Assembly: GCA_049968235.1 (NCBI GenBank)
Contig: JBMFRC010000008.1
Coordinates: 1 to 64,000 of the forward strand
Source of the DNA: Candidatus Hydrogenedens sp.
GTDB lineage: Bacteria; Hydrogenedentota; Hydrogenedentia; Hydrogenedentales; Hydrogenedentaceae
Reading direction: 5' to 3'
DNA length: 64,000 bases
Under the pieces are notes generated by a model that was not told the origin of the DNA, did no database searches, and saw only the letters and a list, made by a program, of their open reading frames with translations. The translations under genes and the position numbers were made by a program. Positions 38,550 to 53,780 of the stretch are shown piece after piece. Every line of letters begins with the position of its first letter. Position 1 is the stretch's first letter.

Positions 38550-40016
38550 TTATTTGGATGTATAGTTATTGTCGTCTTCTTTATCAAGGATTTCATTCGT
38601 ATCGTTAGTTAATCCATATTTTTGAAGTCGGTAACGCAAAGAGCGGGGAGTTAAACCGAGAATTTTTGCAGATTTCTTCTGAGAATATCTTGTATATATC
38701 AGAGCCTGCTCTATCAATCCTCGTTCTATTTTTTCAATAAATTTTTCCAAATCGAGCCCTTCAGGGGGTAATTTAATCTGCCCAATATTATCTATTTCTA
38801 CTTGTTGATTTGTTTTATTAACAATGGTCTGTTTTAATGAATCGGGGATATGGGTTAAATTAATTTCCGTTTCATAACATAAAGCAAGAATTCGTTCGAT
38901 GAAATTAGAAAGTTCACGAATATTCCCGGGCCAGGAATAGTTCAAGAAGAGTTCGATAACATTGGGAGCGATTTTAGGGGTTGGAAGACCCATTCTCGAA
39001 GAGTGCATTTTAAGAAAATGATTTATCAAAAGAGGAATATCTTCTTTTCGTTCGCGTAAAGGAGGGACAGTAATTGGAATGACATTGAGACGGAAAAATA
39101 GGTCCTGACGAAATAATCCTTTATTTATCATCTCTTCTAAATTTCTATTTGTAGCAGAAATAATGCGTATGTCTACTTTTATTTCTTTTGTTCCACCTAC
39201 AGGTGTAACAACATTATTATCTAAAACGCGTAAAAGTCGGGCTTGTAAGTTCATAGGCATTTCACCAATTTCATCGAGGAACACCGTTCCCCCATTGGCA
39301 ACAACCAATAACCCTTCTTTATCCTCTATTGCCCCTGTAAAGGCACCGCGTTTATATCCAAACAATTCGCTTTCTAATAATGTCTCGGGTATCGAAGCAC
39401 AATTTATCGCAAGAAAAGGTTTATCCGCACGAGGACTTAATCGATGTATTCCGCGCGCTATTAATTCTTTACCGGAACCACTTTCACCATAAATAATGAC
39501 CGTACTTGGTAATTGTGCTACTCGAGATATTGTCTCTCGAATTTTTTTTATGGCGGAACTCGTCCCGATAATTTCTTCAAAGGATTGTAATAAAGCGCGT
39601 TCTGTTCGTAAGGCTTCATTTTCTCGTAGCAAATGATGTTGTTCGATAGCCTTCTGGACACGCAAACAGACTTCCTCATTACTTTTGAATGGTTTCTGAA
39701 TATAATCGGTGGCTCCTGCCTGCATTGCTTCTATTGCGTTTTCAACACTGCCATATGCGGTAACCATTATAGTAGGCAATCCGGGAATATTTTCTTTTAC
39801 CCATTTTAATATTTCCATTCCAGCAAGGGGATTATTATTCATTACCAGGTCCGTCACAACAGCATCAAAAGGTTGCTCCTTTAATATTCGGATAGATTCT
39901 TCCAAACTTTCCGCTGTTTGACATAGAAAGCCACCTCTTTCAAGGATGATAGCAATAACTTCTCGCATACTCTCTTCATCATCTATTATCAGAACACGAA
40001 ATTTATTTGTTGCCAT
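38550..40016 (-). CDS. Sigma54-dependent response regulator, NtrC/PilR family (REC + AAA+ + Fis-type HTH)
   Basis: A REC domain, Walker A GESGSGKE, a GAFTGA-like GAFTGA, and a C-terminal HTH. Confidence 0.9.
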   Translation of the reverse strand: MATNKFRVLIIDDEESMREVIAIILERGGFLCQTAESLEESIRILKEQPFDAVVTDLVMNNNPLAGMEILKWVKENIPGLPTIMVTAYGSVENAIEAMQAGATDYIQKPFKSNEEVCLRVQKAIEQHHLLRENEALRTERALLQSFEEIIGTSSAIKKIRETISRVAQLPSTVIIYGESGSGKELIARGIHRLSPRADKPFLAINCASIPETLLESELFGYKRGAFTGAIEDKEGLLVVANGGTVFLDEIGEMPMNLQARLLRVLDNNVVTPVGGTKEIKVDIRIISATNRNLEEMINKGLFRQDLFFRLNVIPITVPPLRERKEDIPLLINHFLKMHSSRMGLPTPKIAPNVIELFLNYSWPGNIRELSNFIERILALCYETEINLTHIPDSLKQTIVNKTNQQVEIDNIGQIKLPPEGLDLEKFIEKIERGLIEQALIYTRYSQKKSAKILGLTPRSLRYRLQKYGLTNDTNEILDKEDDNNYTSK

Positions 40017-40057
40017 CCCACCTATCCTTCGTTATTATTGTATTCTACAACAAACTA

Positions 40058-41659
40058 TCATCTATGTTTCCCTATATATCGAGGAAGTCGCACAATCATC
40101 GTGGTTCCTCTTTTCAAGTTGGATGCTACATGAATGGTTCCATCATGGGCGGATATAATACGAAGACTTATCGTTAAACCCATACCAATGCCATGTTTTT
40201 TCTCTGTATAAAAGGGGTCAAAAATACGCGTGATTTTGTCCGGTGAGATTCCTGTTCCTTCATCTTTGAAATGTATTTCAACAGGTCCTTTCTCTTCTTT
40301 TCCTGTTAAAAGGATAGTTAAGTTTCCCCCATCCGGCATTGCATCAATAGCATTCTGTGCTAAATTCTGGAATACAAGGAAAATTTGTTCCGCATCACCC
40401 TTAATTTTACACTCTTTGGCTTGAGGTTCAATTATCAGTTCTACTTTATGCCCTTTATCCTGAGGGATATTTTTTTGAAATTGTTCTACAAATCGAGTTA
40501 ACAGCTCCGTTAGACTTATGATTTCTTTATTTTGAGAAGGTTCACGAGCAAAATTCAAAAAGGAGGTAATAATATAGTTCAATCGGTCACATTCCCGTAT
40601 CGCTATGGAAGACAATCGATTGAGTTTATCTGTATTATCCATGTTTTTGGGTATTTCCGCTACAGCACCGCGTATAGAAGCCACGGGATTTCGTATTTCA
40701 TGGGCTAAACTTGCTAATTGTTCACCAATAGCCACAAGTCGGTCATGCCGTCGCAAGTCCTGACGGATCTGGTCCAATTCACTCAGGTCAGAACAGGATG
40801 CAATGAGTGCTATTACTCGCCCTTTTGCATCTAATAATCGATTGGTAGTTAGTCCAATTAACTTTTGTTTTCCGCTGGGTGTATATATATAAAATTCATA
40901 ACTGGAAAAGTCACGGTTTAATCGTAATGCAGTCGTAATTGGACATTCAAACTCAGAGACTGTTTTAATTAGTCCTTCTACATGTTTACCTACAATGCCT
41001 TGCTCATCTACCTCAAAAATCCGACAACCAGCTTGGTTTAAACTTCGGACAATTCCATTGGCATCTGTAATAAGGAAACCACTGTTCATGTTGTTTAATA
41101 TATCTTGTTGGAACTGTTTCAGGATAGAAACTCGTTGATTCCAATAACCACTGATAAAACCTGTAAATGTAAAGGACATTGCCTGGATTAAAAATGAATA
41201 CCAATATTGTATCGATGCCAAACTTGATTTGTTTTCTAATGCGAATTGAGAACCCATAAACACAGTTGAAAATATGGCAAAAAGAAATCCTTGATAAATT
41301 CCTAATAGAAAACCTGCTTCCATAATAACGATAACAAGTAAAAAAGTAAAGGAACTGGCATATCCCTCTGTGATACCAATCGTGGCACAGACAATACCAA
41401 AATCAACAAACATCTGAGCCCATAACAGGAAATTAAGTCGCTGTGAACCTTTATACAGTTCATACAAATGCCAGATACTTAATATCAAAGCAATAACATA
41501 AATGGGAAAAAAGAAATAAAAGAAAGAACCATAAAGGTAGAGATAAAATCCTGCGGTAACCAAAAATAAGACAAAAATTCTACCTATACCGACAATCCAT
41601 AACCAGTGAACAGGTCCTTCATAAGTTGTTTTTGTAAGAGAAAAATTACGGGATTTCAC
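40058..41659 (-). CDS. Membrane sensor histidine kinase, PilS-like (about 6 TM helices, PAS, HisKA, HATPase)
   Basis: Hydrophobic N-terminal third. H-box LAHEIRNPVASIRG. HATPase G-boxes. It overlaps the pilT stop by 4 nt. Confidence 0.85.
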   Translation of the reverse strand: MKSRNFSLTKTTYEGPVHWLWIVGIGRIFVLFLVTAGFYLYLYGSFFYFFFPIYVIALILSIWHLYELYKGSQRLNFLLWAQMFVDFGIVCATIGITEGYASSFTFLLVIVIMEAGFLLGIYQGFLFAIFSTVFMGSQFALENKSSLASIQYWYSFLIQAMSFTFTGFISGYWNQRVSILKQFQQDILNNMNSGFLITDANGIVRSLNQAGCRIFEVDEQGIVGKHVEGLIKTVSEFECPITTALRLNRDFSSYEFYIYTPSGKQKLIGLTTNRLLDAKGRVIALIASCSDLSELDQIRQDLRRHDRLVAIGEQLASLAHEIRNPVASIRGAVAEIPKNMDNTDKLNRLSSIAIRECDRLNYIITSFLNFAREPSQNKEIISLTELLTRFVEQFQKNIPQDKGHKVELIIEPQAKECKIKGDAEQIFLVFQNLAQNAIDAMPDGGNLTILLTGKEEKGPVEIHFKDEGTGISPDKITRIFDPFYTEKKHGIGMGLTISLRIISAHDGTIHVASNLKRGTTMIVRLPRYIGKHR

Positions 41660-42741
41660 CCCGCCGAGCCTCCTCGTTCTATAAGATTTAATAATCCTTC
41701 GGGATTAGGACTGCGTTTAAATGCCAGGTCTTTTGTAATCAGTCCTCTTCGGTATAAACGATATAAGGATTGGTTCATTGTCATCATCCCTTCCCCTTTG
41801 CCAATTTCAATCATAGAAGGAATTTGTTCTAATTTCTGGGCACGAATGAGGGAACGAATAGCGGGATTAGGAACCATTACTTCCGTAGCAAGCACACGTC
41901 CCTGTCCATCAGCACGGGGTATAAGCTGCTGAACAATGAGCCCTTCAAGCACAAACGAAAGTTGGGTTCGCACCTGTTCTTGTTGCTCCTGTGGGAACAC
42001 ATCAACAATACGATTAATCGTTTGAACTGCATCATTCGTGTGTAATGTAGCAAAAGTGAGGTGTCCTGTTTCTGCAACAGTAAGTGCCGCCTGAATCGTT
42101 TCTGTATCACGCATTTCACCAATCAAAATTACATCAGGGTCCTGTCGAAGTACTCGTTTTAAAGCACTGGCAAAGGTTTTTGTATCCACATTCACTTCGC
42201 GCTGATTGATGATGGACCTCCGGTGGGAATGTAGATATTCGATAGGGTCCTCAATAGTTATAATATGCACATCGCGTTCCACATTTATTTTATCTATCAG
42301 AGCAGCAAGGGTGGTTGACTTCCCACTTCCTGTGGGACCACATACAAGGATTAGCCCATAAGGACGGTATGCAAAATCCGCTACAACGCGGGGAATCCCT
42401 AATTGTTCAAAAGACATAATTTCATACGGAATAGCACGGAACGCAGCAACAACAGAGCCACGGTCCCGATAGACATTCAAACGGAAACGACTAAGTTTTT
42501 CTACGCCAAAGGACATATCTAATTCTTTTTCTTTTTCAAATTCTGCTATCTGCTCCTCATTCATCACAGAGTAAATTAGTTCCTGTGTAATTTCAGGAGA
42601 GAGACGAGGGTACCCCGGCATGTATTCCAGCCTCCCATATACACGGATTACAGGGGGAACACCAACAACGATATGCAAATCACTTGCACCCGCTTTTATC
42701 ATTTTTTCTAAAAGTTCTCTAATATCGAATGTTAATCTCAT
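41656..42741 (-). CDS. pilT: Type IV pilus retraction ATPase PilT
   Basis: Walker A GPTGSGKSTTLAA and the PilT/GspE family Asp and His boxes. 361 aa. Confidence 0.9.
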   Translation of the reverse strand: MRLTFDIRELLEKMIKAGASDLHIVVGVPPVIRVYGRLEYMPGYPRLSPEITQELIYSVMNEEQIAEFEKEKELDMSFGVEKLSRFRLNVYRDRGSVVAAFRAIPYEIMSFEQLGIPRVVADFAYRPYGLILVCGPTGSGKSTTLAALIDKINVERDVHIITIEDPIEYLHSHRRSIINQREVNVDTKTFASALKRVLRQDPDVILIGEMRDTETIQAALTVAETGHLTFATLHTNDAVQTINRIVDVFPQEQQEQVRTQLSFVLEGLIVQQLIPRADGQGRVLATEVMVPNPAIRSLIRAQKLEQIPSMIEIGKGEGMMTMNQSLYRLYRRGLITKDLAFKRSPNPEGLLNLIERGGSAG

Positions 42742-45474: not shown

Positions 45475-46974
45475 ATGAACTCTCAACACACACACTCATC
45501 TACTTGTAGTTGCTGTGGTATTTCCCGCAGATGCTTCCTTGCAACCAGTACTGCAGTAGGATTAACCGTGCCTTTATTATCCTCCGCACAAATGGAATTC
45601 CCAACTGAAAATGAATTAAAACAACCTATAAATCTGGGTGATTTTCGACCTAAACCTTCTGTGCGTATTGTAGGTGTAGTTGTTCGAGAAAAACCTCCTT
45701 ATTGGTTAGGCTGGCCTGGGACCTCGTATGATGTCGAAGGAAAAAGGAAGGAGTTTGAACAGGCTTTTGTCAATTCAGCCAAAAAAGTTGACGTTCAGTT
45801 TGAAATGCTACCCGACCCTATTGAGGATAATACCGCATTGGAAAAATTTACTAATCAAATGTCAACAGAAAAACCCGATGCTATTCTTGTCCATGTTCAG
45901 CATTTAAATGTATGGGGCAGGGTAGATAAAATTCGTTCCGCTAAGATTCCCATGATTGTTTGGGCTCCACTGGGTACCGTGTTTACTACTCAAGTTCACG
46001 AATTTGCCCGTAGAGAGGGGGTATGTTTATTATCCACATTAGATACAAGTTGTCTTGAACAGGCAATGCGAATGGTGCGTGCTAAGAAACAATTCGAGTT
46101 ATCCCGTATACTGGTAGTGCATGGAAATGAACGTAAGGATGAAGTGATTGACCGTTTTGGAACAAAGATTCGACATGTCCCTCGCGAGATGATGGAAAAA
46201 ATGTTTGAGCGTGTTCCTGTAACAGAAGAAGTAAAAGAAGTTGCTGACAGGATGAAAAAGAAAGCACAAAAGGTTGTAGAACCCACCGATGAAGATATGA
46301 TAAATGCAGCTCGAAGTTATGTTGCTGCAAAACATTTATTGCGTATGGAAGATGCCAACGCAATAACAACTGATTGCCTGGGTATGGTTACCATGAAAAC
46401 AGTACCCACTCCTCCGTGTCTTGGTGCATGCATCTTTCAAGATGAAGGTGTAACTTACGGTTGTGAAGCCGATATTTATGGGGCTATGTCATTAATGTTT
46501 ACCAGTTACCTCTTCGATAAACCCGGTTTTATGAACGACCCTGTTCCTGAGACTATAAAAAATGAACTCATAACAGCCCATTGCGTATGTGGAACGAAAC
46601 TCAATGGATTTGATAAACCTTCTGAGCCCTTCATTATCCGTTCCCATTCTGAGTCCGCTCTGGGTGTGTCCTTGCAAGTATTGTGGAAGATTGGACAGCC
46701 TGCAACACTGGTTCGATTACAAAATCCCAATGAACTTATTCTGGATAATGGAACAGTCACCGCAAATATTGATACACCTCCTGCTGGCGGTTGTAGAACG
46801 CATTTATCCCTAAAAATGGATTATATTGAAGAAGCCAAAGACACATTAGGCTTCCACCAGGTTGTATTTTATGGAAATCATCGTAGAGATGTGAAAAACT
46901 TCTGCCAGATGTACGGTATAAAAGTCATTCACTCTCCGGCACAAGCCAATCCTATGTTACCTATGGAAGCATAA
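45475..46974 (+). CDS. Tat-signal hypothetical protein with a Cys/His-rich extreme N-terminus
   Basis: MNSQHTHSSTCSCCGISRRCFLATSTAVGL (twin-arginine SRRxFLA). It is the only + strand gene in a 30-kb minus-strand block. No family was recognised. Confidence 0.5.
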   Translation: MNSQHTHSSTCSCCGISRRCFLATSTAVGLTVPLLSSAQMEFPTENELKQPINLGDFRPKPSVRIVGVVVREKPPYWLGWPGTSYDVEGKRKEFEQAFVNSAKKVDVQFEMLPDPIEDNTALEKFTNQMSTEKPDAILVHVQHLNVWGRVDKIRSAKIPMIVWAPLGTVFTTQVHEFARREGVCLLSTLDTSCLEQAMRMVRAKKQFELSRILVVHGNERKDEVIDRFGTKIRHVPREMMEKMFERVPVTEEVKEVADRMKKKAQKVVEPTDEDMINAARSYVAAKHLLRMEDANAITTDCLGMVTMKTVPTPPCLGACIFQDEGVTYGCEADIYGAMSLMFTSYLFDKPGFMNDPVPETIKNELITAHCVCGTKLNGFDKPSEPFIIRSHSESALGVSLQVLWKIGQPATLVRLQNPNELILDNGTVTANIDTPPAGGCRTHLSLKMDYIEEAKDTLGFHQVVFYGNHRRDVKNFCQMYGIKVIHSPAQANPMLPMEA

Positions 46975-47081: not shown

Positions 47082-48578
47082 TTATGATTTTTTCAAGGGT
47101 TCCCCCAGAAGATAGCGATGAATAGACATTGCAGCCGTTTTTGCCTGTCCCATGGCACTGATTACAGTTGCAGCACCGGAAACAATATCGCCTCCTGCAA
47201 AAATACCAGGGACGGAAGTTTCCATTGTTTCAGGATCAACAACAATAGTGCCATGTTTCGTAGTTTGTAATTCAGGCATAGATTTAGGTATAAGCGGATT
47301 GGGTTGATTCCCTATAGCAATAATAACCGTATCCACCTCCATAATAAATTCGGACCCTTTAATAGGGACAGGTCTGCGTCTCCCCGAAGAATCAGGCTCG
47401 CCTAATTCCATTCGGATACATTCCATCCCAACAACACGATGCCGTTCATCACCAAGGATTCGAACAGGGTTATTTAATAGAAGCATCTTCACTCCTTCTT
47501 CTTCTGCATGATGAATTTCTTCGGCACGGGCAGGCATTTGTTCGCGGGCACGACGGTAAACAATGCTTACATCTCCCCCTAAACGCAAAGCGGTACGTGC
47601 TGAGTCCATAGCCACATTGCCACCGCCGATTACAGCAACTTTATTCCGTTTGATAGGGGGTGTATCGTATTTTGGGAAAAGGTAGGCTTTCATCAGATTA
47701 GAGCGAGTGAGATATTCATTGGCAGAATAGACGCCTACTAAATTCTCACCGGGAATCCCCATAAAGGAAGGGAGACCTGCTCCCGTCCCAATAAATACCG
47801 CATGATAACCTTCTTCATCGAACAATTCCCGAATTGTACAATTTCTTCCAATGACAAAATCCATCACAAATTCGACACCCAATCGTTTGAGATATGCCAC
47901 CTCTGCGCGGACAATTTCTTTAGGAAGCCGGAATTCGGGTATGCCATACATAAGTACTCCACCGGGTTCATGTAAAGCCTCAAACACAGTAACTTCATGC
48001 CCCAATTTGATAAGGTCACCAGCGACCGTAAGCCCTGCGGGACCTGCACCAATTACAGCCACCCGCTTACCTGTTTTTGGGAGAATTTCAGGTAGTTGTA
48101 CTTGTCCACTGGCTCGTTCAAAATCCGCACAAAAACGCTCTAATCTTCCAATTGCTACGGATTCTCCTTTGACACCTAATATACACCCGCTTTCACATTG
48201 TTCTTCTTGTGGGCATACTCGACCACAAACCGCAGGTAACGCATTTTGTAGTTTAATATGCTGAGCCGCCTCGATGAATTTACCATCTTTGATAAGGCGG
48301 ATAAATCCTGGAATATCAATATGGACGGGACAACCTTCAACACAACCCGGCTTTTTGCAATCAAGGCAACGGGACGCTTCCAGTATAGCCAATTCCGGAG
48401 TATAACCGAACGGCACTTCTTCAAAATTATACCGTCGGTCTTCCGGTGCTTGTTCGGGCATAGGTTGTCGTGGAACTTTTCCCTTTTTTTTAGGTTTTGT
48501 TTCCTGTGAAAGGCTATCTTGTGTCTTTATTTCAGAATTTTCGGGTTGTGTCATGGCTTCTAACCTCTTTCCATACAA
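47082..48578 (-). CDS. NfnB / GltD-like subunit (2x[4Fe-4S] + FAD/NAD(P)H pyridine nucleotide-disulfide oxidoreductase fold)
   Basis: N-terminal Cys clusters (CLDCKKPGCVEGCP). Two Rossmann motifs (VAVIGAGPAGL; VAVIGGGNVAMD). Confidence 0.85.
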   Translation of the reverse strand: MYGKRLEAMTQPENSEIKTQDSLSQETKPKKKGKVPRQPMPEQAPEDRRYNFEEVPFGYTPELAILEASRCLDCKKPGCVEGCPVHIDIPGFIRLIKDGKFIEAAQHIKLQNALPAVCGRVCPQEEQCESGCILGVKGESVAIGRLERFCADFERASGQVQLPEILPKTGKRVAVIGAGPAGLTVAGDLIKLGHEVTVFEALHEPGGVLMYGIPEFRLPKEIVRAEVAYLKRLGVEFVMDFVIGRNCTIRELFDEEGYHAVFIGTGAGLPSFMGIPGENLVGVYSANEYLTRSNLMKAYLFPKYDTPPIKRNKVAVIGGGNVAMDSARTALRLGGDVSIVYRRAREQMPARAEEIHHAEEEGVKMLLLNNPVRILGDERHRVVGMECIRMELGEPDSSGRRRPVPIKGSEFIMEVDTVIIAIGNQPNPLIPKSMPELQTTKHGTIVVDPETMETSVPGIFAGGDIVSGAATVISAMGQAKTAAMSIHRYLLGEPLKKS

Positions 48579-51097
48579 GAACAGTGATGGTAACGATGTT
48601 CTCCCTGAACGGTTTTAGAGGGCATGGTAAAACTTATCGCTTGAATTTCTTCCGCACTATAGGCTTCTCTCCGGTCGCGAACCTCATCCCAATCAACCTG
48701 ATGTGCATCGAAGAAAGGTCCATCAACACATGCAAATTTTGTTTCCCCGTTTATACTGATTCGACAGGCACCACACATACCGGTACCATCTAACATAATA
48801 GGATTTAATGCACAAACCGCTTTTATACCTGTATTGCGGGTTTCTTCTGCAGTAATCATCATCATAAAGGGACATCCCACCGCAACAATCAGGTCTATTT
48901 TCTCACCCGACTGAATTAATCGCTTTAATGCATCAATGGCATGTCCCTTTTCTCCTAATGATGCATCTACAGTTGTTTGAATAAATCGGTCACTGACAGT
49001 AGAGAGTTCTTCTTCGTAATATGCAAGATAATGACTTCGTGCTTCAGAGATTACGATGACTTTATTTCCTTGTTCATGTAATGAACGAGATAAACAGACT
49101 ACTGCACCAATTCCATAACATCCACCTAATATAGCGACTGTTCCATAATGCTTAACTTCAAAAGCAGTACCCAATGGACCTACAACATGAGCAAGACATT
49201 CACCTTCAGATACAGAAATCATTTTCCGACTGGACAAACCCTTTTCTTGTATTACCAATGTAATGGTCCCTTTTTCTTCATCCCAATCACTTAAAGTATA
49301 AGGAATGCGTTCTGAGTTCTCATCTACCATTACGATAACAAATTGTCCAGGTAGTGCCTTTTTCGCAATAGCAGGAGCATAAATAACAAACTCATAGGTA
49401 TTAGGGACTAGTTCCCTACGTGATAAAACCATAAATGGATACGGTGTCTCAGGTAATTTTATTTCTGCTTTTATCGATGTTTTCTCTTCATGGTCTTTGC
49501 CCTCTTCAAAATTCCTCACTGCCACTAAACCGGACACATAATCTTCTACCTTATGTCCTTTGAACCATTCTCGGCGTTCCTTTAAGTTTTGCGATGCGGG
49601 AGGTGCTGTTTGTCGATCAAGATACAATTGGGCTGTATCTAAATCTAATTCACGCGATATTTCTTCAACAGATGTATATTCTTTCCATGCCTCTGAAGAT
49701 AGGGCTCTGGCTATTTGTTGAATAATAATCCATTCAGGTATTGCATCTCCCGGTGGATTGCATGCTTTTATCAAGGGACGCAACCGATTATTTCTATCCA
49801 GCACTGTCCCTGAAACTTCAGCAAAAATGGCGGTCGGATACACCACATCCGCAGATTTTGTCCATTCCGACGGAAAGACATCCAGAGCAATAACCACATC
49901 AAAATTACTCCGAAATTCTTGTGGGATAAATAAACCTGTAGTAATAACCGCTTTAACTTCCGTGGGGATATTTGTAATTCTTGCAAAACCTTTCTTATCC
50001 GGAACAATCTCGAAATAATACGGAGATTGCATTACCTCCTGTGTAAATTTCTTAAATATATGTCTATCTTCCAATGTACTGGATGTATCACAAACAAAGG
50101 CAAATTTCTTACCTGTATAATTCTTTAATAACTCCGCACATCGATGTATGGTTTCTTCAGATGAAACTGGTCGTAATACTTTGTTAATTCGTATTTGTGG
50201 TGAACGAAGGCGATGGGGACTGTTTAAAAATTCAGGGATTGCAAAATGTCCTAAAACACATACAGGTAGATGGTCGTAAACACCCTTAACCATAACCGAT
50301 TTATTATTTACCGCATATACTGCCAGAGCACAGGCTTCATCACAGTAGATGCAGGTGGTTTCAATTTTTGTATCCGGTCGTCCAAACCATTTTGCATATC
50401 GGTCTGATAAAGTCCCCGTAGGACATACATCCACACATGAACCGCAGAAAGTGCAACCCGCTTCATGTAAGTTTCTTCCGAAAGCCTGTCCGATATGGGT
50501 CTGACTGCTACGATGAATAAAATCAATTACGGATTTACCCTGATGTAATTTACAAATGCGAACACATCTTCCGCAAAGAATACATAGATTTAAATCTCGG
50601 TCAATAAAAGGTTCAGAACGCTCTATGGGTTTGTAATGATATTTGGGAGACACCAAAATTTCTGCCAGACCCAAATCTGCGGATAGTTCCCGTACTTCAC
50701 ACACATCTTTGTTGTTACAGGTATGACAACCTGTTGTTGCCCCTACCTTTTCCGATTTTGGTCGATATTTATCACACAATTCGCGTCGCTCACACACAAG
50801 GCAGGCACTGGGATGTTCTAACATCATCAGTCCCAGAATATTTCTGCGTAATAGACGCAAACTTTCCGTTTGCGTATGAATAACCATCCCTTCAGCAATC
50901 GGTGTGGAACAGGATGTAGGATAACCTCGCATACCTTCCACTTCTACAATACATATACGACAGGCACCGAAAGGTGGTAACGCAGGATGCGTGCATAGAT
51001 GGGGAATGGATATTCCATGCCGTAAAGCACATTCTAATATCGTTTCACCTGCTCTACCTTCAAGTGTTTTTCCATCAATAACTACATTCACAATCAA
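48560..51097 (-). CDS. Fusion protein: a NuoG/HydA-N-like Fe-S subunit (2Fe-2S, His-ligated and 4Fe-4S clusters, non-catalytic molybdopterin-oxidoreductase-like domain) with a C-terminal NfnA/PyrK-like FAD/NAD + [2Fe-2S] domain
   Basis: CTHPALPPFGACRICIVEVEG; CILCGRCVRIC; CTFCGSCVDVCPTG. The C-terminus has RIPYTLSDW (RxYS FAD motif) and CGACRIS...C. No H-cluster motifs are seen. Confidence 0.75.
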   Translation of the reverse strand: MIVNVVIDGKTLEGRAGETILECALRHGISIPHLCTHPALPPFGACRICIVEVEGMRGYPTSCSTPIAEGMVIHTQTESLRLLRRNILGLMMLEHPSACLVCERRELCDKYRPKSEKVGATTGCHTCNNKDVCEVRELSADLGLAEILVSPKYHYKPIERSEPFIDRDLNLCILCGRCVRICKLHQGKSVIDFIHRSSQTHIGQAFGRNLHEAGCTFCGSCVDVCPTGTLSDRYAKWFGRPDTKIETTCIYCDEACALAVYAVNNKSVMVKGVYDHLPVCVLGHFAIPEFLNSPHRLRSPQIRINKVLRPVSSEETIHRCAELLKNYTGKKFAFVCDTSSTLEDRHIFKKFTQEVMQSPYYFEIVPDKKGFARITNIPTEVKAVITTGLFIPQEFRSNFDVVIALDVFPSEWTKSADVVYPTAIFAEVSGTVLDRNNRLRPLIKACNPPGDAIPEWIIIQQIARALSSEAWKEYTSVEEISRELDLDTAQLYLDRQTAPPASQNLKERREWFKGHKVEDYVSGLVAVRNFEEGKDHEEKTSIKAEIKLPETPYPFMVLSRRELVPNTYEFVIYAPAIAKKALPGQFVIVMVDENSERIPYTLSDWDEEKGTITLVIQEKGLSSRKMISVSEGECLAHVVGPLGTAFEVKHYGTVAILGGCYGIGAVVCLSRSLHEQGNKVIVISEARSHYLAYYEEELSTVSDRFIQTTVDASLGEKGHAIDALKRLIQSGEKIDLIVAVGCPFMMMITAEETRNTGIKAVCALNPIMLDGTGMCGACRISINGETKFACVDGPFFDAHQVDWDEVRDRREAYSAEEIQAISFTMPSKTVQGEHRYHHCSCMERG

Positions 51098-51121
51098 ATC
51101 ACCTCTTTAATATATAACCCT

Positions 51122-53044
51122 TTAATCCGTTTTCTTCTTTCTTGCCTTTATGGGTTCATAACGAACTCGAGACCCACTACGGCGATATACCGCCGAATAC
51201 ATAGACGGACAAACCCGCAGACATTGACCACAATGTATACATTTTCCCTGGTCAATTACATGGGCCTCTTTCCTTTTACCGGATATCGCTTCTACCGGAC
51301 ATGCCCTGGCACACATGGTACAACCCGTACAACGCTCCGCATCAATGTGATAAGAGATAAGAGAACTACAAACAAAAGCACGGCACTCCTTCGCTTTAAT
51401 ATGCTCTTCATATTCATGTCGGAAATAACGCAGTGTAGATAATACGGGATTGGGTGCGGTCTGTCCTAATCCACATAAGGAGCCTTGTTTAATCGTTTGA
51501 GCCAGTGTTTCCAAACGAATAATATCCGTTAAATCCCCTTTACCAGCACAAATGCGTTCAAGAATACCTAACATAGCACGTGTACCAACACGACAGGGGG
51601 TACATTTACCGCAGGATTCCGCCTGAGTAAATGATAGGAAATAACGGGCAATATCCACCATACAGTTGTCTTCATCTAAAACAATCATTCCGCCCGAACC
51701 CATGATACTACCTGCTTTTGTCAGGGATTCATAATCAACGGGCAGGTCTAACATTTCTGACGGAATACATCCTCCGGATGGACCTCCGGTCTGGACTGCT
51801 TTCACTTCTTTATCATTTAAAATACCTCCACCAACATCAAATATTACTTTTCGCAGAGGTATGCCCAAAGGGATTTCAACCAATCCTGTTCGTTTAATTT
51901 TTCCTGCTAGAGCAAAGGTCTTTGTCCCCTTGCTGTTTTCATTTCCATACTGCACATACCAATCTGCACCTCGATGGAGAATTAAAGGCAGATTTGCTAA
52001 AGTTTCGACATTCTGAATAATTGTGGGCTTACCCCATAATCCGCTAATAGCCGGAAAAGGGGGACGGGGACGGGGCATACCCCGGTTCCCTTCAATAGAT
52101 GCAATCAGAGCGGTTTCTTCTCCACAGACAAAAGCTCCTGCCCCTTTCTTAACCGTAATGTCAAAAGAAAAACCACTCCCCAATATATTTTCCCCTAATA
52201 AACCATGTTCATACATCTGCTGAATGGCAATTTCTAATCGCCGTATAGCTAGAGGATATTCCGCACGACAATACACATATCCATGCCGAGCACCGATAGT
52301 ATATCCTGCTATCAACATTCCTTCCAATACCGAATGCGGGTCTCCTTCCAGGACCGAACGATTCATAAATGCACCGGGGTCCCCTTCATCCGCATTACAA
52401 ATAAGATACTTCCCTTCGGCGGATGTTTCTCGGGCAAAAGACCATTTCTTCCATGTGGGGAATCCCGCACCTCCACGACCTCGCAAACCTGATTTTTTTA
52501 CTTCCTCCAACACTGCATCTGCACCAATATTTAACGCCTTTAAAAAACCACGATAACCATTCTGGGCTAAATAATGGTAGAAATTTTCAGGGTCAATCAA
52601 TCCGCAATTGCGAAGTATATTGCGGACTTGATGCGACAACATCGGATGCCTTGTAATCGGAGGCAATCCTCGAAACTCATCCATACTCATTACTCCAATG
52701 AGTTTTTCTTCCCATACCCCTTCTTCTAAAAAAATCCGATTTACAAATTCCTCGACATTTTCAGGCTTTATAGGACCATAACATATAGGAATCCCTCCCG
52801 GAGGTTGAACCATAATAATAGGTTCTAACACACAGGGACCCATACAGCCCACTTCAATAAACATTGCATATTTTTTATTTTGTATCAAAAGTTTTTTAAT
52901 AATCTCTTCGGTTTCAAGGGCACCTGCGGCTCGACCACAGGTTGCTGAACCTACATAGACCACAGGAATCGTATTACTTTCTATCTTTCCCCATTCTTCC
53001 TGTGCTCGTTCATATAAAATCTCCATAGTATCATTTGCTATCAT
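51122..53044 (-). CDS. NuoF/HydB-like flavoprotein subunit (FMN, NADH binding, Fe-S)
   Basis: GAGAFVCGEETALIASIEG (NuoF FMN/NADH signature), a C-terminal 4Fe-4S ferredoxin pair, and an N-terminal thioredoxin-like domain. Confidence 0.9.
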   Translation of the reverse strand: MIANDTMEILYERAQEEWGKIESNTIPVVYVGSATCGRAAGALETEEIIKKLLIQNKKYAMFIEVGCMGPCVLEPIIMVQPPGGIPICYGPIKPENVEEFVNRIFLEEGVWEEKLIGVMSMDEFRGLPPITRHPMLSHQVRNILRNCGLIDPENFYHYLAQNGYRGFLKALNIGADAVLEEVKKSGLRGRGGAGFPTWKKWSFARETSAEGKYLICNADEGDPGAFMNRSVLEGDPHSVLEGMLIAGYTIGARHGYVYCRAEYPLAIRRLEIAIQQMYEHGLLGENILGSGFSFDITVKKGAGAFVCGEETALIASIEGNRGMPRPRPPFPAISGLWGKPTIIQNVETLANLPLILHRGADWYVQYGNENSKGTKTFALAGKIKRTGLVEIPLGIPLRKVIFDVGGGILNDKEVKAVQTGGPSGGCIPSEMLDLPVDYESLTKAGSIMGSGGMIVLDEDNCMVDIARYFLSFTQAESCGKCTPCRVGTRAMLGILERICAGKGDLTDIIRLETLAQTIKQGSLCGLGQTAPNPVLSTLRYFRHEYEEHIKAKECRAFVCSSLISYHIDAERCTGCTMCARACPVEAISGKRKEAHVIDQGKCIHCGQCLRVCPSMYSAVYRRSGSRVRYEPIKARKKKTD

Positions 53045-53595
53045 TGCTCAACACCTGCTTTATTATCTTCTTTTTGACGATATTCTTTAATTACTTCACG
53101 AACTTTTTCCTGTGTCATCTGGGCATAAACCTTGCCATTAACTGCCATCACAGGTGCTAACGCACAACAACCGACACATGCAACCCGTTCTAATGTAAAC
53201 AAACCATCTGCTGTAGTATGTCCCGGTTCTATATTTAATTCCTCACGCAACGCTTCTAACACCACAGAAGAACCACGAACATGGCATGCCGTACCCTGAC
53301 ATATCTGAATAACATATTTACCCGGCGGTGTAAATTTGAACTGGGTATAAAACGATGCTACTCCATAGATTTCCGAAGCAGATACTCCTAAATATTCGGA
53401 CATTGCATCAACCGCAGGAGATGAAATATAACCATAATGCTCTTGTACCTCCTGAAGCAATGGAATAATACTACTACGCCGGGCAGGGTATTTTTGAAAT
53501 AATTGTTGCAAACCAAAAACCAATTCATTCTTTGATGAACTCAACGATAAATTCCTTCTCGTTGTATAGCGAAAGGCATAACTAAATTGAAGCAA
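53041..53595 (-). CDS. NuoE/HydC-like thioredoxin-fold [2Fe-2S] subunit
   Basis: CQGTACHVRGS ... CVGCCALAP cysteine pattern. There is a 4-nt overlap with the nuoF-like gene. Confidence 0.85.
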   Translation of the reverse strand: MLQFSYAFRYTTRRNLSLSSSKNELVFGLQQLFQKYPARRSSIIPLLQEVQEHYGYISSPAVDAMSEYLGVSASEIYGVASFYTQFKFTPPGKYVIQICQGTACHVRGSSVVLEALREELNIEPGHTTADGLFTLERVACVGCCALAPVMAVNGKVYAQMTQEKVREVIKEYRQKEDNKAGVEQ

Positions 53596-53780
53596 AAACG
53601 GAGCAAAGAATTATACCATGACCAAAATAAAAAAGTAAAACGATCTACTTTTACTGTTCTATTCGTAGGAGAAATAATATATATTTATAATGGAATAAGA
53701 GAAAAAACTATGAGAGAATGGAATAAGAGAAAAAACTATGAGAGTTCTTTGTAAGAAAAAGAAAATTATTAGAATTTAGG

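Follow-up and report, generated by a model that had tools for sequence, protein, structure and literature searches.

The first 64,000 nucleotides of contig JBMFRC010000008.1 of Candidatus Hydrogenedens sp., hereafter the window, contain four co-directional and tightly packed open reading frames (ORFs) on the minus strand, between positions 53595 and 47082. A reading of the sequence alone had assigned them to a 24-kDa-like [2Fe-2S] subunit, a 51-kDa-like subunit binding flavin mononucleotide (FMN) and NADH, a NuoG/HydA-N-like Fe-S scaffold with a complete NfnA/PyrK-like C-terminus, and a GltD/NfnB-like subunit, and had taken the whole for a transhydrogenase of unusual composition. All four ORFs were recovered at the expected coordinates and strand, and we refer to them as bfuC, bfuB, the BfuA~NfnS fusion and nfnL (Table 1). 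The start of bfuB overlaps the stop of bfuC by 4 nt, the fusion ORF starts 24 nt past the stop of bfuB, and nfnL either overlaps the fusion by 19 nt (with a TTG start) or follows it after a gap of 5 nt (with the ATG at 48554). The true start of bfuC is probably a TTG at 53544, which lies behind an AGAAGGA ribosome-binding site.

Table 1. Genes, domains and promoter-like site of the operon, in window coordinates
Feature	Position	Strand	Details
Promoter-like TTTACT-18 nt-TATAAT with TG extension	53610..53639	(-)	directly 5' of bfuC; 10/12 consensus positions
bfuC (NuoE / 24-kDa-like)	53041..53595	(-)	184 aa; thioredoxin-like [2Fe-2S] subunit
bfuB (NuoF / 51-kDa-like)	51122..53044	(-)	640 aa; FMN/NADH subunit
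BfuA~NfnS fusion	ORF 51097..48560	(-)	845 aa; NuoG-like part + NfnS domain
NuoG-like Fe-S wire, fusion residues 1-235	50393..51097	(-)	Pfam + conserved Cys/His
Reduced molybdopterin-oxidoreductase-type domain, residues 236-530	49508..50392	(-)	weak Molybdop_Fe4S4; Molybdopterin profile 285-352
Variable linker, residues 531-554	49436..49507	(-)	conservation 0.11 over 526-550; pLDDT <50 at 536-544
NfnS (NfnA/PyrK-like) domain, residues 555-845	48563..49435	(-)	NF004862 331 bits over 556-825
nfnL (NfnB/GltD-like)	47082..48578	(-)	498 aa; TIGR01316

The Bfu-type core and the large Nfn subunit

The products of the first two genes are most similar to subunits of bifurcating enzymes. The bfuC product matches PF01257 (1.7e-55) and has the C1 [2Fe-2S] motif, Cx4C-x35-Cx3C; among solved proteins it most resembles the BfuC subunit of each of the three NfnABC/Stn structures, namely T. 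sibiricus NfnC (9n5u_C), C. saccharolyticus 9bov_C and S. ovata StnA (8oh5_A). In the bfuB product, Pfam and NCBIfam models identify Complex1_51K (2.4e-47), NADH_4Fe-4S (1e-33) and a C-terminal 2x[4Fe-4S] domain, in addition to an N-terminal thioredoxin-like domain with three Cys. The NADH domain contains DEGDPGAFMNR at residue 219 and the FMN domain GAGAFVCGEETAL at residue 301; the corresponding BfuB motifs, DEGDPGAFM(D/N)R and GAGAFV(C/S)GE..AL, mark bifurcating off from non-bifurcating NuoF-like proteins (Schut et al. 2022, PMC9304861, Supplementary Figs 9-10). A GGPSGGC loop and the B1 [4Fe-4S] cluster motif are present, and the B2 site (H548-x5-C554-x4-C559) is spaced exactly as H525/C531/C536 of A. 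mobile BfuB, the three Cys and one His ligands of B2 being kept in all 1,558 Bfu sequences analysed by Schut et al. (2022, PMC9304861). Finally, two Cx2Cx2Cx3CP motifs within residues 572-613 correspond to the B3/B4 dicluster ferredoxin-like domain, to which ferredoxin docks in Bfu enzymes of known structure.

When the bfuB product was compared with solved structures, the highest score was obtained with BfuB of the A. mobile NiFe-HydABCSL complex (7t2r_B, 759 bits), followed by the BfuB subunits of C. saccharolyticus NfnABC (9bov_B, 750 bits), S. ovata StnABC (8oh5_B, 746 bits), T. sibiricus NfnABC (710 bits) and A. woodii HydABC (703 bits), whereas complex I subunits reached only ~330-390 bits. 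The top solved matches of the bfuB and bfuC products are all biochemically bifurcating enzymes. Judged from these motifs and scores, the NuoE/NuoF pair is a Bfu-type core and not a pair of generic complex I N-module subunits, which narrows the earlier 24-kDa-like and 51-kDa-like assignments (themselves upheld by PF01257 and Complex1_51K) and leaves the FMN site with both of its Bfu-type motifs intact.

In some Pirellulales and Hydrogenedens relatives, the C-terminal 2x[4Fe-4S] domain of BfuB is replaced by a second GltD-like module (locus L011, 728-3844, and also L009, L010 and L019). This module consists of Fer4_20 and Pyr_redox_2, is ~40% identical to NfnL, and raises the number of flavin sites in the complex to four. 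Only for [FeFe]-hydrogenase clusters of Hydrogenedentota has a comparable BfuB, with an additional domain for flavin adenine dinucleotide (FAD), been described (PMC11406978).

The product of the last gene matches TIGR01316 with 624 bits (cut-off 472). Its scores against T. maritima NfnB (4ylf_B) and P. furiosus NfnL (5jca_L) are 581 and 530 bits, as opposed to 300-364 bits for the GltD-like domains of NfnABC/Stn. It has the two cluster motifs published for NfnB, RCx2Cx4Cx3CPV and GRVCPQExQCx3C, the latter with a Glu replacing a Cys at the proximal cluster (PMC6405883), with RCLDCKKPGCVEGCPV at the distal [4Fe-4S] cluster and GRVCPQEEQCESGC at the proximal, Glu-containing one; in NfnABC/Stn the position of this Glu is taken by a Lys (PMC12018979). 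The protein also has the FAD motif GAGPAG, the NADPH motif GGGNVAMD, the flavin-N5 Arg (in GIPEFRLPK) and the YRR of the second NADPH motif (VYRR). Among 25 related loci, only 12 family-specific substitutions set NfnL apart from the two crystallised enzymes, and none of the 12 is a new Cys or His that might mark an interface. By these features the last gene encodes a near-canonical NfnL, in agreement with its first description as GltD/NfnB-like.

The fused scaffold and its NfnS domain

Pfam and NCBIfam models place Fer2_4, the NuoG His-cluster domain, Fer4_Nqo3, Molybdop_Fe4S4, a Molybdopterin remnant and NF004862 along the fusion, in that order. The N-terminal wire contains a [2Fe-2S] ligand motif (C35, C46, C49 and C63), a His-ligated [4Fe-4S] motif (H95, C99, C102 and C108), a second, family-specific copy of this motif (C124(H125), C127 and C133), and two further [4Fe-4S] motifs (C172/175/178/182 and C215/218/221/225). 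The Cys and His residues of all of these are invariant in the sets of 120 and 61 homologues on which conservation was scored. The doubled motif, Hx3Cx2Cx5C-x15-Cx2Cx5C, occurs in all members of the family that were examined, which range from Asgard archaea to Planctomycetota; A. mobile BfuA (7t2r_A), HydA (7p5h_A) and FdsA (6tg9_A) have one copy, and this copy aligns with the second one of the fusion. The doubling predicts one additional metal or cluster site in the wire.

The reduced molybdopterin-type domain that follows has its own [4Fe-4S] motif (C249, C252, C256 and C280), and domain and motif searches of the fusion protein found no Molydop_binding domain (PF01568), no complete pterin domain and no catalytic Cys/Sec context. 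By analogy with NuoG, this domain probably serves as a docking platform. An AlphaFold2 model of the fusion as a single chain, built on 61 homologues, has a mean predicted local distance difference test score (pLDDT) of 81 and a predicted template modelling score of 0.73, with pLDDT >90 throughout the middle, molybdopterin-type domain. In a Foldseek search with this model, the NuoG-like part retrieved the folds of the complex I 75-kDa subunit, of FdsA and of BfuA from the A. mobile NiFe-Bfu hydrogenase (7t30_A). The variable linker behind it is where the gene boundary of unfused relatives falls. Longer NuoG-like proteins (742-841 aa) with a fuller molybdopterin domain were seen in Syntrophorhabdales and related lineages (L024, 6001-8226; L028, 6001-8523), and the one in L028 retains a fragment of Molydop_binding; because these long variants keep a larger pterin-type domain, they suggest that the scaffold arose by reduction from a formate dehydrogenase (Fdh)-like BfuA.

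A motif search of the scaffold protein for the H-cluster motifs P1 (TSCCPxW), P2 (MPCxxK) and P3 (ExMxCxxGCxxG) found none of the three, as the sequence-only reading had said, and the match to the FeFe_hydrog_A6 model is limited to residues 3-109. Of the initial label, NuoG/HydA-N-like, the NuoG half stands and is better given as NuoG/FdsA-like with a reduced molybdopterin-type domain; the HydA half does not.

The C-terminal domain is recognised by NF004862, a model for sulfide/dihydroorotate dehydrogenase-like FAD/NAD-binding proteins (Table 1), and it scores 254 bits against the small subunit of P. furiosus NfnI (5jca_S), with a Foldseek TM (template modelling) score of 0.89. Its a-FAD strand reads ERIPYT and its [2Fe-2S] motif DGTGMCGACRISINGETKFACV (pattern DGTGMCGACR-x10-CV, Asp/Cys3), consistent with the published NfnA motifs ERxPxT and DGTGMCGxCRx10CV (PMC6405883). 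Across 61 family members, the Asp, the three Cys and the FAD-strand core do not vary; of 120 homologues, 116 have the complete a-FAD motif and 119 the complete [2Fe-2S] motif.

The two NAD(H) loops of the characterised enzymes, in contrast, are replaced. Where the T. maritima and P. furiosus enzymes have GGGVG(V/I)A as their glycine loop, Bfu-associated NfnS has (G/A)GCYG(I/L/V)G (GGCYGIG with C660 in the fusion described here), and GP(A/T)IMM has become GC(P/V/L/T)FMM (here GCPFMMM with C742); in addition, His637 stands in place of an Asp and His719 (GEKGH719) in place of a hydrophobic residue. All of these positions are invariant among the fusions in both homologue sets, and the Cys pair and His719 extend to the unfused and most distant Bfu-associated members. 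The canonical residues are found in T. maritima, in P. furiosus NfnI and NfnII, and in two NfnL~NfnS fusions that have no adjacent Bfu genes (L031/L032). From what is generally known of the ferredoxin-NADP+ reductase fold, the altered loops presumably line the nicotinamide/pyrophosphate cleft beside the flavin. P. furiosus NfnII has an altered loop too and is reportedly without NAD-dependent activity (PMC6405883). The C-terminus of the fusion is complete, as first proposed, in its fold and in its FAD and Asp-[2Fe-2S] motifs, but not in its NAD(H)-domain loops, which are systematically altered.

The fusion ends in a His/Cys-rich tail, GEHRYHHCSCMERG (residues ~820-845, window 48563-48640), which includes C839 and C841 and has pLDDT <50. 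A Cys at the tail position is present in 111/120 homologues and in distant unfused members, but several standalone NfnS-like proteins lack it.

Distribution, genomic context and known relatives

The best 120 database homologues of the fusion are nearly all full length (97-100% query cover), 53-92% identical and from independent sources. Those that carry names come from Hydrogenedentota, Planctomycetota and Dehalococcoidia, and the nearest named relatives are 71-80% identical. A frameshift artefact is ruled out by these at least 120 near-full-length homologues of independent origin. In a sample of 32 genome loci, in which gene order could be read only where the contig was long enough, the order NuoE-NuoF-[NuoG~NfnS]-NfnL is kept in nearly all sufficiently long loci. 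More distant members have the NuoG-like (~540 aa) and NfnS-like (~285 aa) proteins encoded by separate, adjacent genes, as in Binatia (L018, L021), Hodarchaeota (L023), Syntrophorhabdales (L024/L025) and L028. Searches with the NfnS domain also returned many standalone proteins of ~284 aa with 55-65% identity; all five of those on long contigs that were looked up sit in a NuoE-NuoF-NuoG-NfnS-NfnL cluster with unrelated neighbours on both sides. On this comparative evidence, the fusion is a lineage-specific form, found in Hydrogenedentota and Planctomycetota, of a broader five-gene cluster. The composition is unusual, as the sequence-only reading had it, and at the same time one form of something widespread. 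Such a Rosetta-stone fusion of a conserved gene set speaks strongly for a single complex of the five modules.

Three observations were made beside unfused clusters. In two Hodarchaeota contigs (L023, 12903-14411; L027, 6139-7647), another fusion lies ~3 kb downstream of the five-gene cluster and joins a pyridine-nucleotide-disulfide-oxidoreductase-like N-terminus to an NfnS-like domain with a GGGCGVAP loop. A gene of the YgbA_NO (nitrous-oxide-stimulated promoter) family is located directly downstream of two clusters (L034, 10299-10703; L037, 8412-8825). In L036 (8783-9493), thioredoxin and ferredoxin-thioredoxin reductase beta genes are found just downstream, on the opposite strand.

Within the window, the four genes form a self-contained operon, because a promoter-like site precedes bfuC and the downstream gene is convergent. 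The site, TTTACT-18-TGgTATAAT, is the best promoter match of the region, a match to the consensus only, in a region whose total of such sites is not above the shuffled expectation. About 50-100 bp further upstream (window 53689-53744) lie two perfect tandem copies of a 28-bp unit, which reads CTCTCATAGTTTTTTCTCTTATTCCATT on the minus strand and could be a regulator binding site. The convergent gene is a 499-aa ORF (45475-46974, plus strand) with an N-terminal twin-arginine-like signal, SRRCFLATSTAVGL, for which no Pfam match with E <1e-5 was found. At 38550-42741 on the minus strand, upstream of a glucan phosphorylase gene, consecutive genes encode a sigma-54-dependent response regulator, a PAS histidine kinase and a type II/IV secretion ATPase, with no evident tie to the operon. 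More generally, the flanks of the operon in the window (glucan phosphorylase, rhomboid protease, nucleotidyl transferase, ABC-2 exporter and the two-component/sigma-54 regulator) gave no functional hint.

To place the gene set among characterised systems, we compared it with the complexes that share its modules. Like classical NfnAB/NfnSL, it has an almost canonical large subunit (both [4Fe-4S] motifs, the Glu ligand, the N5 Arg and the NADPH motifs) and a small-subunit fold with the ERxPxT strand and the Asp/Cys3 [2Fe-2S] site; however, its NfnS is fused to or directly follows a NuoG-like protein, is always accompanied by NuoE/NuoF-like Bfu subunits, and has changed NAD(H) loops and a His/Cys-rich tail. 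The operon is accordingly neither a self-contained two-subunit NfnAB nor an NfnA~NfnB fusion. StnABC/NfnABC (S. ovata 8OH5, C. saccharolyticus 9BOV, T. sibiricus 9N5U) share the Bfu core motifs, with BfuB scores of 710-750 bits, the NuoG-like Fe-S chain and a GltD-type FAD/NADPH module as the likely third-substrate site. They differ in that their GltD-like domain lies within BfuA, with its cluster ligated by Lys and its FAD unable to bifurcate, and is found without any NfnS homologue, whereas the operon has a separate canonical NfnL with the Glu motif and carries NfnS on BfuA instead.

The architecture of NiFe-HydABCSL/WorABCSL (A. mobile 7T2R) is also similar, in that a two-subunit third-substrate module sits on the C-terminal molybdopterin-like domain of BfuA in a BfuABC complex, and this enzyme provides the best solved match to BfuB as well as a BfuA alignment over residues 121-353. 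There, however, the docked module is a hydrogenase or tungsten oxidoreductase and not a second bifurcation-capable flavoenzyme, and the BfuA motif is single. Class II benzoyl-CoA reductase, BamBCDEFGHI, likewise combines a HydBC-type confurcating input with a second flavin-based bifurcation module; in that case the second module is of the HdrA type and serves a tungsten site, whereas the one of the operon is of the NfnSL type and lacks a further catalytic subunit. SfrAB of Geobacter and NsoABC of T. litoralis also pair a NuoG/Fdh-like Fe-S protein with a GltD-like NADPH flavoprotein, but SfrAB has neither NuoE/NuoF nor NfnS, and NsoABC, a Stn-type enzyme, has its GltD fused within the NuoG-like subunit.

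The absence of an NfnA homologue from Stn, which had been stated correctly in the sequence-only reading, is documented, as is that of a HydBC homologue from Nfn (PMC10482914). A survey of Nfn enzymes distinguished four patterns, NfnAB, two NfnA~NfnB fusions and a diplomonad form, none of them with NuoG (PMC6405883), and the Bfu classification includes Nfn-Bfu only as type 1 ABC with a fused NfnL-like domain and has no type with NfnS or a separate NfnL (PMC9304861). In a study of Bfu in Hydrogenedentota, only the [FeFe]-hydrogenase clusters, with an H-cluster BfuA, were analysed. We found no description of this gene set in the full-text literature searched, which yielded only work on Stn/NfnABC, NfnSL, Bfu classification and hydrogenases and included papers that name both NfnA and NuoG, none of which describes this arrangement; an earlier mention in subscription journals is possible. 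We consider the gene set an uncharacterised, widespread Bfu type with an NfnSL module, for which "Nfn-BfuABCSL" would be a name in the style of the field.

Possible electron paths through the complex

The motifs of the four proteins account for three intact nucleotide/flavin sites (BfuB FMN, NfnS a-FAD and NfnL b-FAD) and about a dozen Fe-S sites. It is highly probable that they belong to one complex that interconverts NAD(H), NADP(H) and ferredoxin (Fd), which would bear out the transhydrogenase first proposed. We take the complex to be soluble and to be made up of a Bfu core plus a complete NfnSL module, in which NfnS is covalently attached to the C-terminus of BfuA; to this explanation, taken together with the wiring set out next, we would give an even chance. 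In the arrangement we favour, NADP(H) would be bound at the NfnL b-FAD, NAD(H) at the BfuB FMN, and Fd at the distal [4Fe-4S] cluster of NfnL and/or the C-terminal dicluster domain of BfuB. The a-FAD of NfnS would no longer be an NAD(H) site and would trade electrons with the cluster chain of BfuA, such that the high-potential branch of Nfn would extend through BfuA to the Bfu flavobicluster. We prefer NfnS as the port because NfnL is essentially unchanged and the only family-specific remodelling of NfnSL is in the NAD(H) domain of NfnS. In the feasible direction, BfuBC would confurcate electrons from NADH and reduced Fd into the BfuA chain, from which they would reach the a-FAD and the [2Fe-2S] cluster, and the b-FAD of NfnL would join them with electrons from a second reduced Fd to form NADPH. 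The formal balance, 6 Fd(red) + NADH + 4 NADP+ -> 4 NADPH, would be that of a strongly driven and essentially one-way NADPH generator.

With physiological potentials of ~-280 mV for NAD, ~-380 mV for NADP and ~-500 mV for Fd (PMC9304861), we calculate that entry through NfnS is feasible only in the NADP+-reducing direction, in which it is exergonic; the NADPH-oxidising direction is barred because the high-potential branch cannot be bifurcated again. There is precedent for Bfu cores that feed other redox modules (Schut et al. 2022, PMC9304861), and class II benzoyl-CoA reductase couples a HydBC-type module to a second bifurcating flavin in one complex (bioRxiv 10.64898/2026.04.10.717634). Several points weigh against this arrangement. 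The single-chain AlphaFold2 model is of low confidence at the linker, around the extra Cys motif and in the tail at the C-terminus; the altered NfnS loops might still bind NAD(H); and the proposed stoichiometry is costly in Fd, when a simple Fd:NADP+ reductase does nearly the same job. The Asp-ligated [2Fe-2S] cluster of the P. furiosus enzyme has a reported potential of +80 mV, and a retained cluster of that type would be an odd relay toward a mid-potential chain in the opposite direction. To wiring through NfnS in the NADP+-reducing direction, although we prefer it, we assign somewhat less than an even chance.

It is also conceivable, though on balance doubtful, that the crossed-potential FAD of NfnL and the FMN/[4Fe-4S]/[2Fe-2S] flavobicluster of BfuBC, two bifurcation sites that differ in mechanism, work in series by way of new cofactor sites. 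No less tentative is where such sites would be: the cleft of NfnS that formerly took NAD(H) would house a metal or cluster site, and the NuoG-like wire would have one cluster more. If the two flavin systems do act in series, the gear ratio would be other than the 2 Fd : 1 NADH : 2 NADPH of all known Nfn enzymes and, depending on the wiring, the complex would either generate NADPH under a strong driving force or supply reductant at potentials well below -500 mV.

Two other wirings use the same parts. In one, the b-FAD of NfnSL would be a non-bifurcating entry for NADPH and pass both of its electrons into BfuA, so that only the Bfu flavobicluster, whose motifs are intact, would bifurcate. The FAD of the GltD-like domain in StnC/NfnA of StnABC/NfnABC has lost bifurcation in just this way (PMC10482914, PMC12018979), and the net reaction, 2 NADPH + NAD+ + 2 Fd(ox) -> 2 NADP+ + NADH + 2 Fd(red), is thermodynamically balanced and physiologically sensible. 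Yet NfnL keeps both [4Fe-4S] motifs, high similarity to T. maritima NfnB and the Glu motif tied to bifurcation, where Stn/NfnABC have Lys; moreover, Stn needs no NfnS, whereas here NfnS has motifs for the a-FAD and the Asp-[2Fe-2S] cluster that do not vary, which suggests that two separate electron paths lead out of the b-FAD. We regard this Stn-like operation as unlikely. Very unlikely, in our view, is the converse wiring, in which NAD(H) would stay at the a-FAD and the distal [4Fe-4S] cluster of NfnL would feed BfuA, possibly via the site at the extra Cys motif, for the Bfu core to bifurcate the low-potential electrons a second time and produce a reductant far below -500 mV. Its formal balance, 4 NADPH + 3 NAD+ + 2 Fd(ox) -> 4 NADP+ + 3 NADH + 2 Fd(red), is by our arithmetic exergonic in the NADPH-oxidising direction, and the extra invariant Cx2Cx5C of BfuA could supply the docking cluster. 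Relatives of the gene set are present in Syntrophorhabdales, some of whose members degrade aromatic compounds. Two coupled bifurcation modules that reach very low potentials are seen in the structure of class II benzoyl-CoA reductase (bioRxiv 10.64898/2026.04.10.717634). Against such a role, no conserved consumer of low-potential electrons, such as a reductase, is found beside the cluster, whose neighbours differ in every locus; the cluster at the extra BfuA motif is only putative; and the family-specific changes are in the NAD(H) domain of NfnS and not in NfnL.

The Cys and His residues of the remodelled NfnS domain could also have a chemistry of their own. C660, C742, H637 and H719 might form a redox-active dithiol or metal site near the a-FAD, with which the complex would reduce a disulfide, polysulfide or metal substrate at the expense of NAD(P)H and ferredoxin. 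The signature is invariant and specific to Bfu-associated NfnS, the L036 cluster lies near thioredoxin and ferredoxin-thioredoxin reductase beta genes, and relatives in this enzyme class were first named sulfide dehydrogenase (SudAB), NADPH sulfur oxidoreductase (NsoABC) and soluble Fe(III) reductase (SfrAB) (PMC7483475). Those historical activities, however, are now seen as side reactions of Nfn-type enzymes, the five standalone loci have no conserved thiol-substrate genes beside the cluster, and the closeness of the four residues in space is only presumed, so that we hold this explanation to be scarcely probable. The separate NuoG-like and NfnS ORFs of several lineages would at first sight agree with a chance juxtaposition, or an artefact, of an orphan NuoEFG-like module and an ordinary NfnAB. 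But the in-frame fusion recurs in at least 120 independent sequences, order and spacing are kept from Asgard archaea to Planctomycetota, the hallmarks of NfnS and BfuA are found only when the two are associated, and a NuoEFG-like module that lacked a catalytic partner would be left with no third substrate; fusion and synteny, as read from the genomes, effectively refute coincidental adjacency.

Three known identities were considered and rejected. The missing H-cluster motifs rule out an ordinary HydABC hydrogenase. A formate dehydrogenase or an accessory module of one is ruled out by the reduced pterin domain, the lack of Molydop_binding and the absence of an Fdh gene nearby in any locus, and TIGR01591, used to test for formate dehydrogenase, gave 98 bits against a cut-off of 666. 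The N-module of complex I is ruled out by the Bfu-specific motifs, the C-terminal ferredoxin domain and the absence of membrane-arm genes nearby.

NfnSL and the Bfu-type NfnABC/Stn are viewed in the field as alternatives, organisms tending to have either one or the other, and this natural operon carries both, with two unexplained conserved sites at the likely junction of the two bifurcation systems. If both bifurcation sites are active, the complex would be a test bed for the coupling of two bifurcation mechanisms, for re-gearing the stoichiometry of the NADH, NADPH and ferredoxin pools, and for turning an NAD(H) pocket into an interface for internal electron transfer. The Bfu classification would gain a type, and the metabolic reconstruction of many uncultured lineages would change, among them Hydrogenedentota, Planctomycetota, Binatia, Syntrophorhabdales, Aminicenantes and Asgard Hodarchaeota, whose genomes at present label these genes "NADH dehydrogenase subunit G" or "sulfide/dihydroorotate dehydrogenase-like protein".

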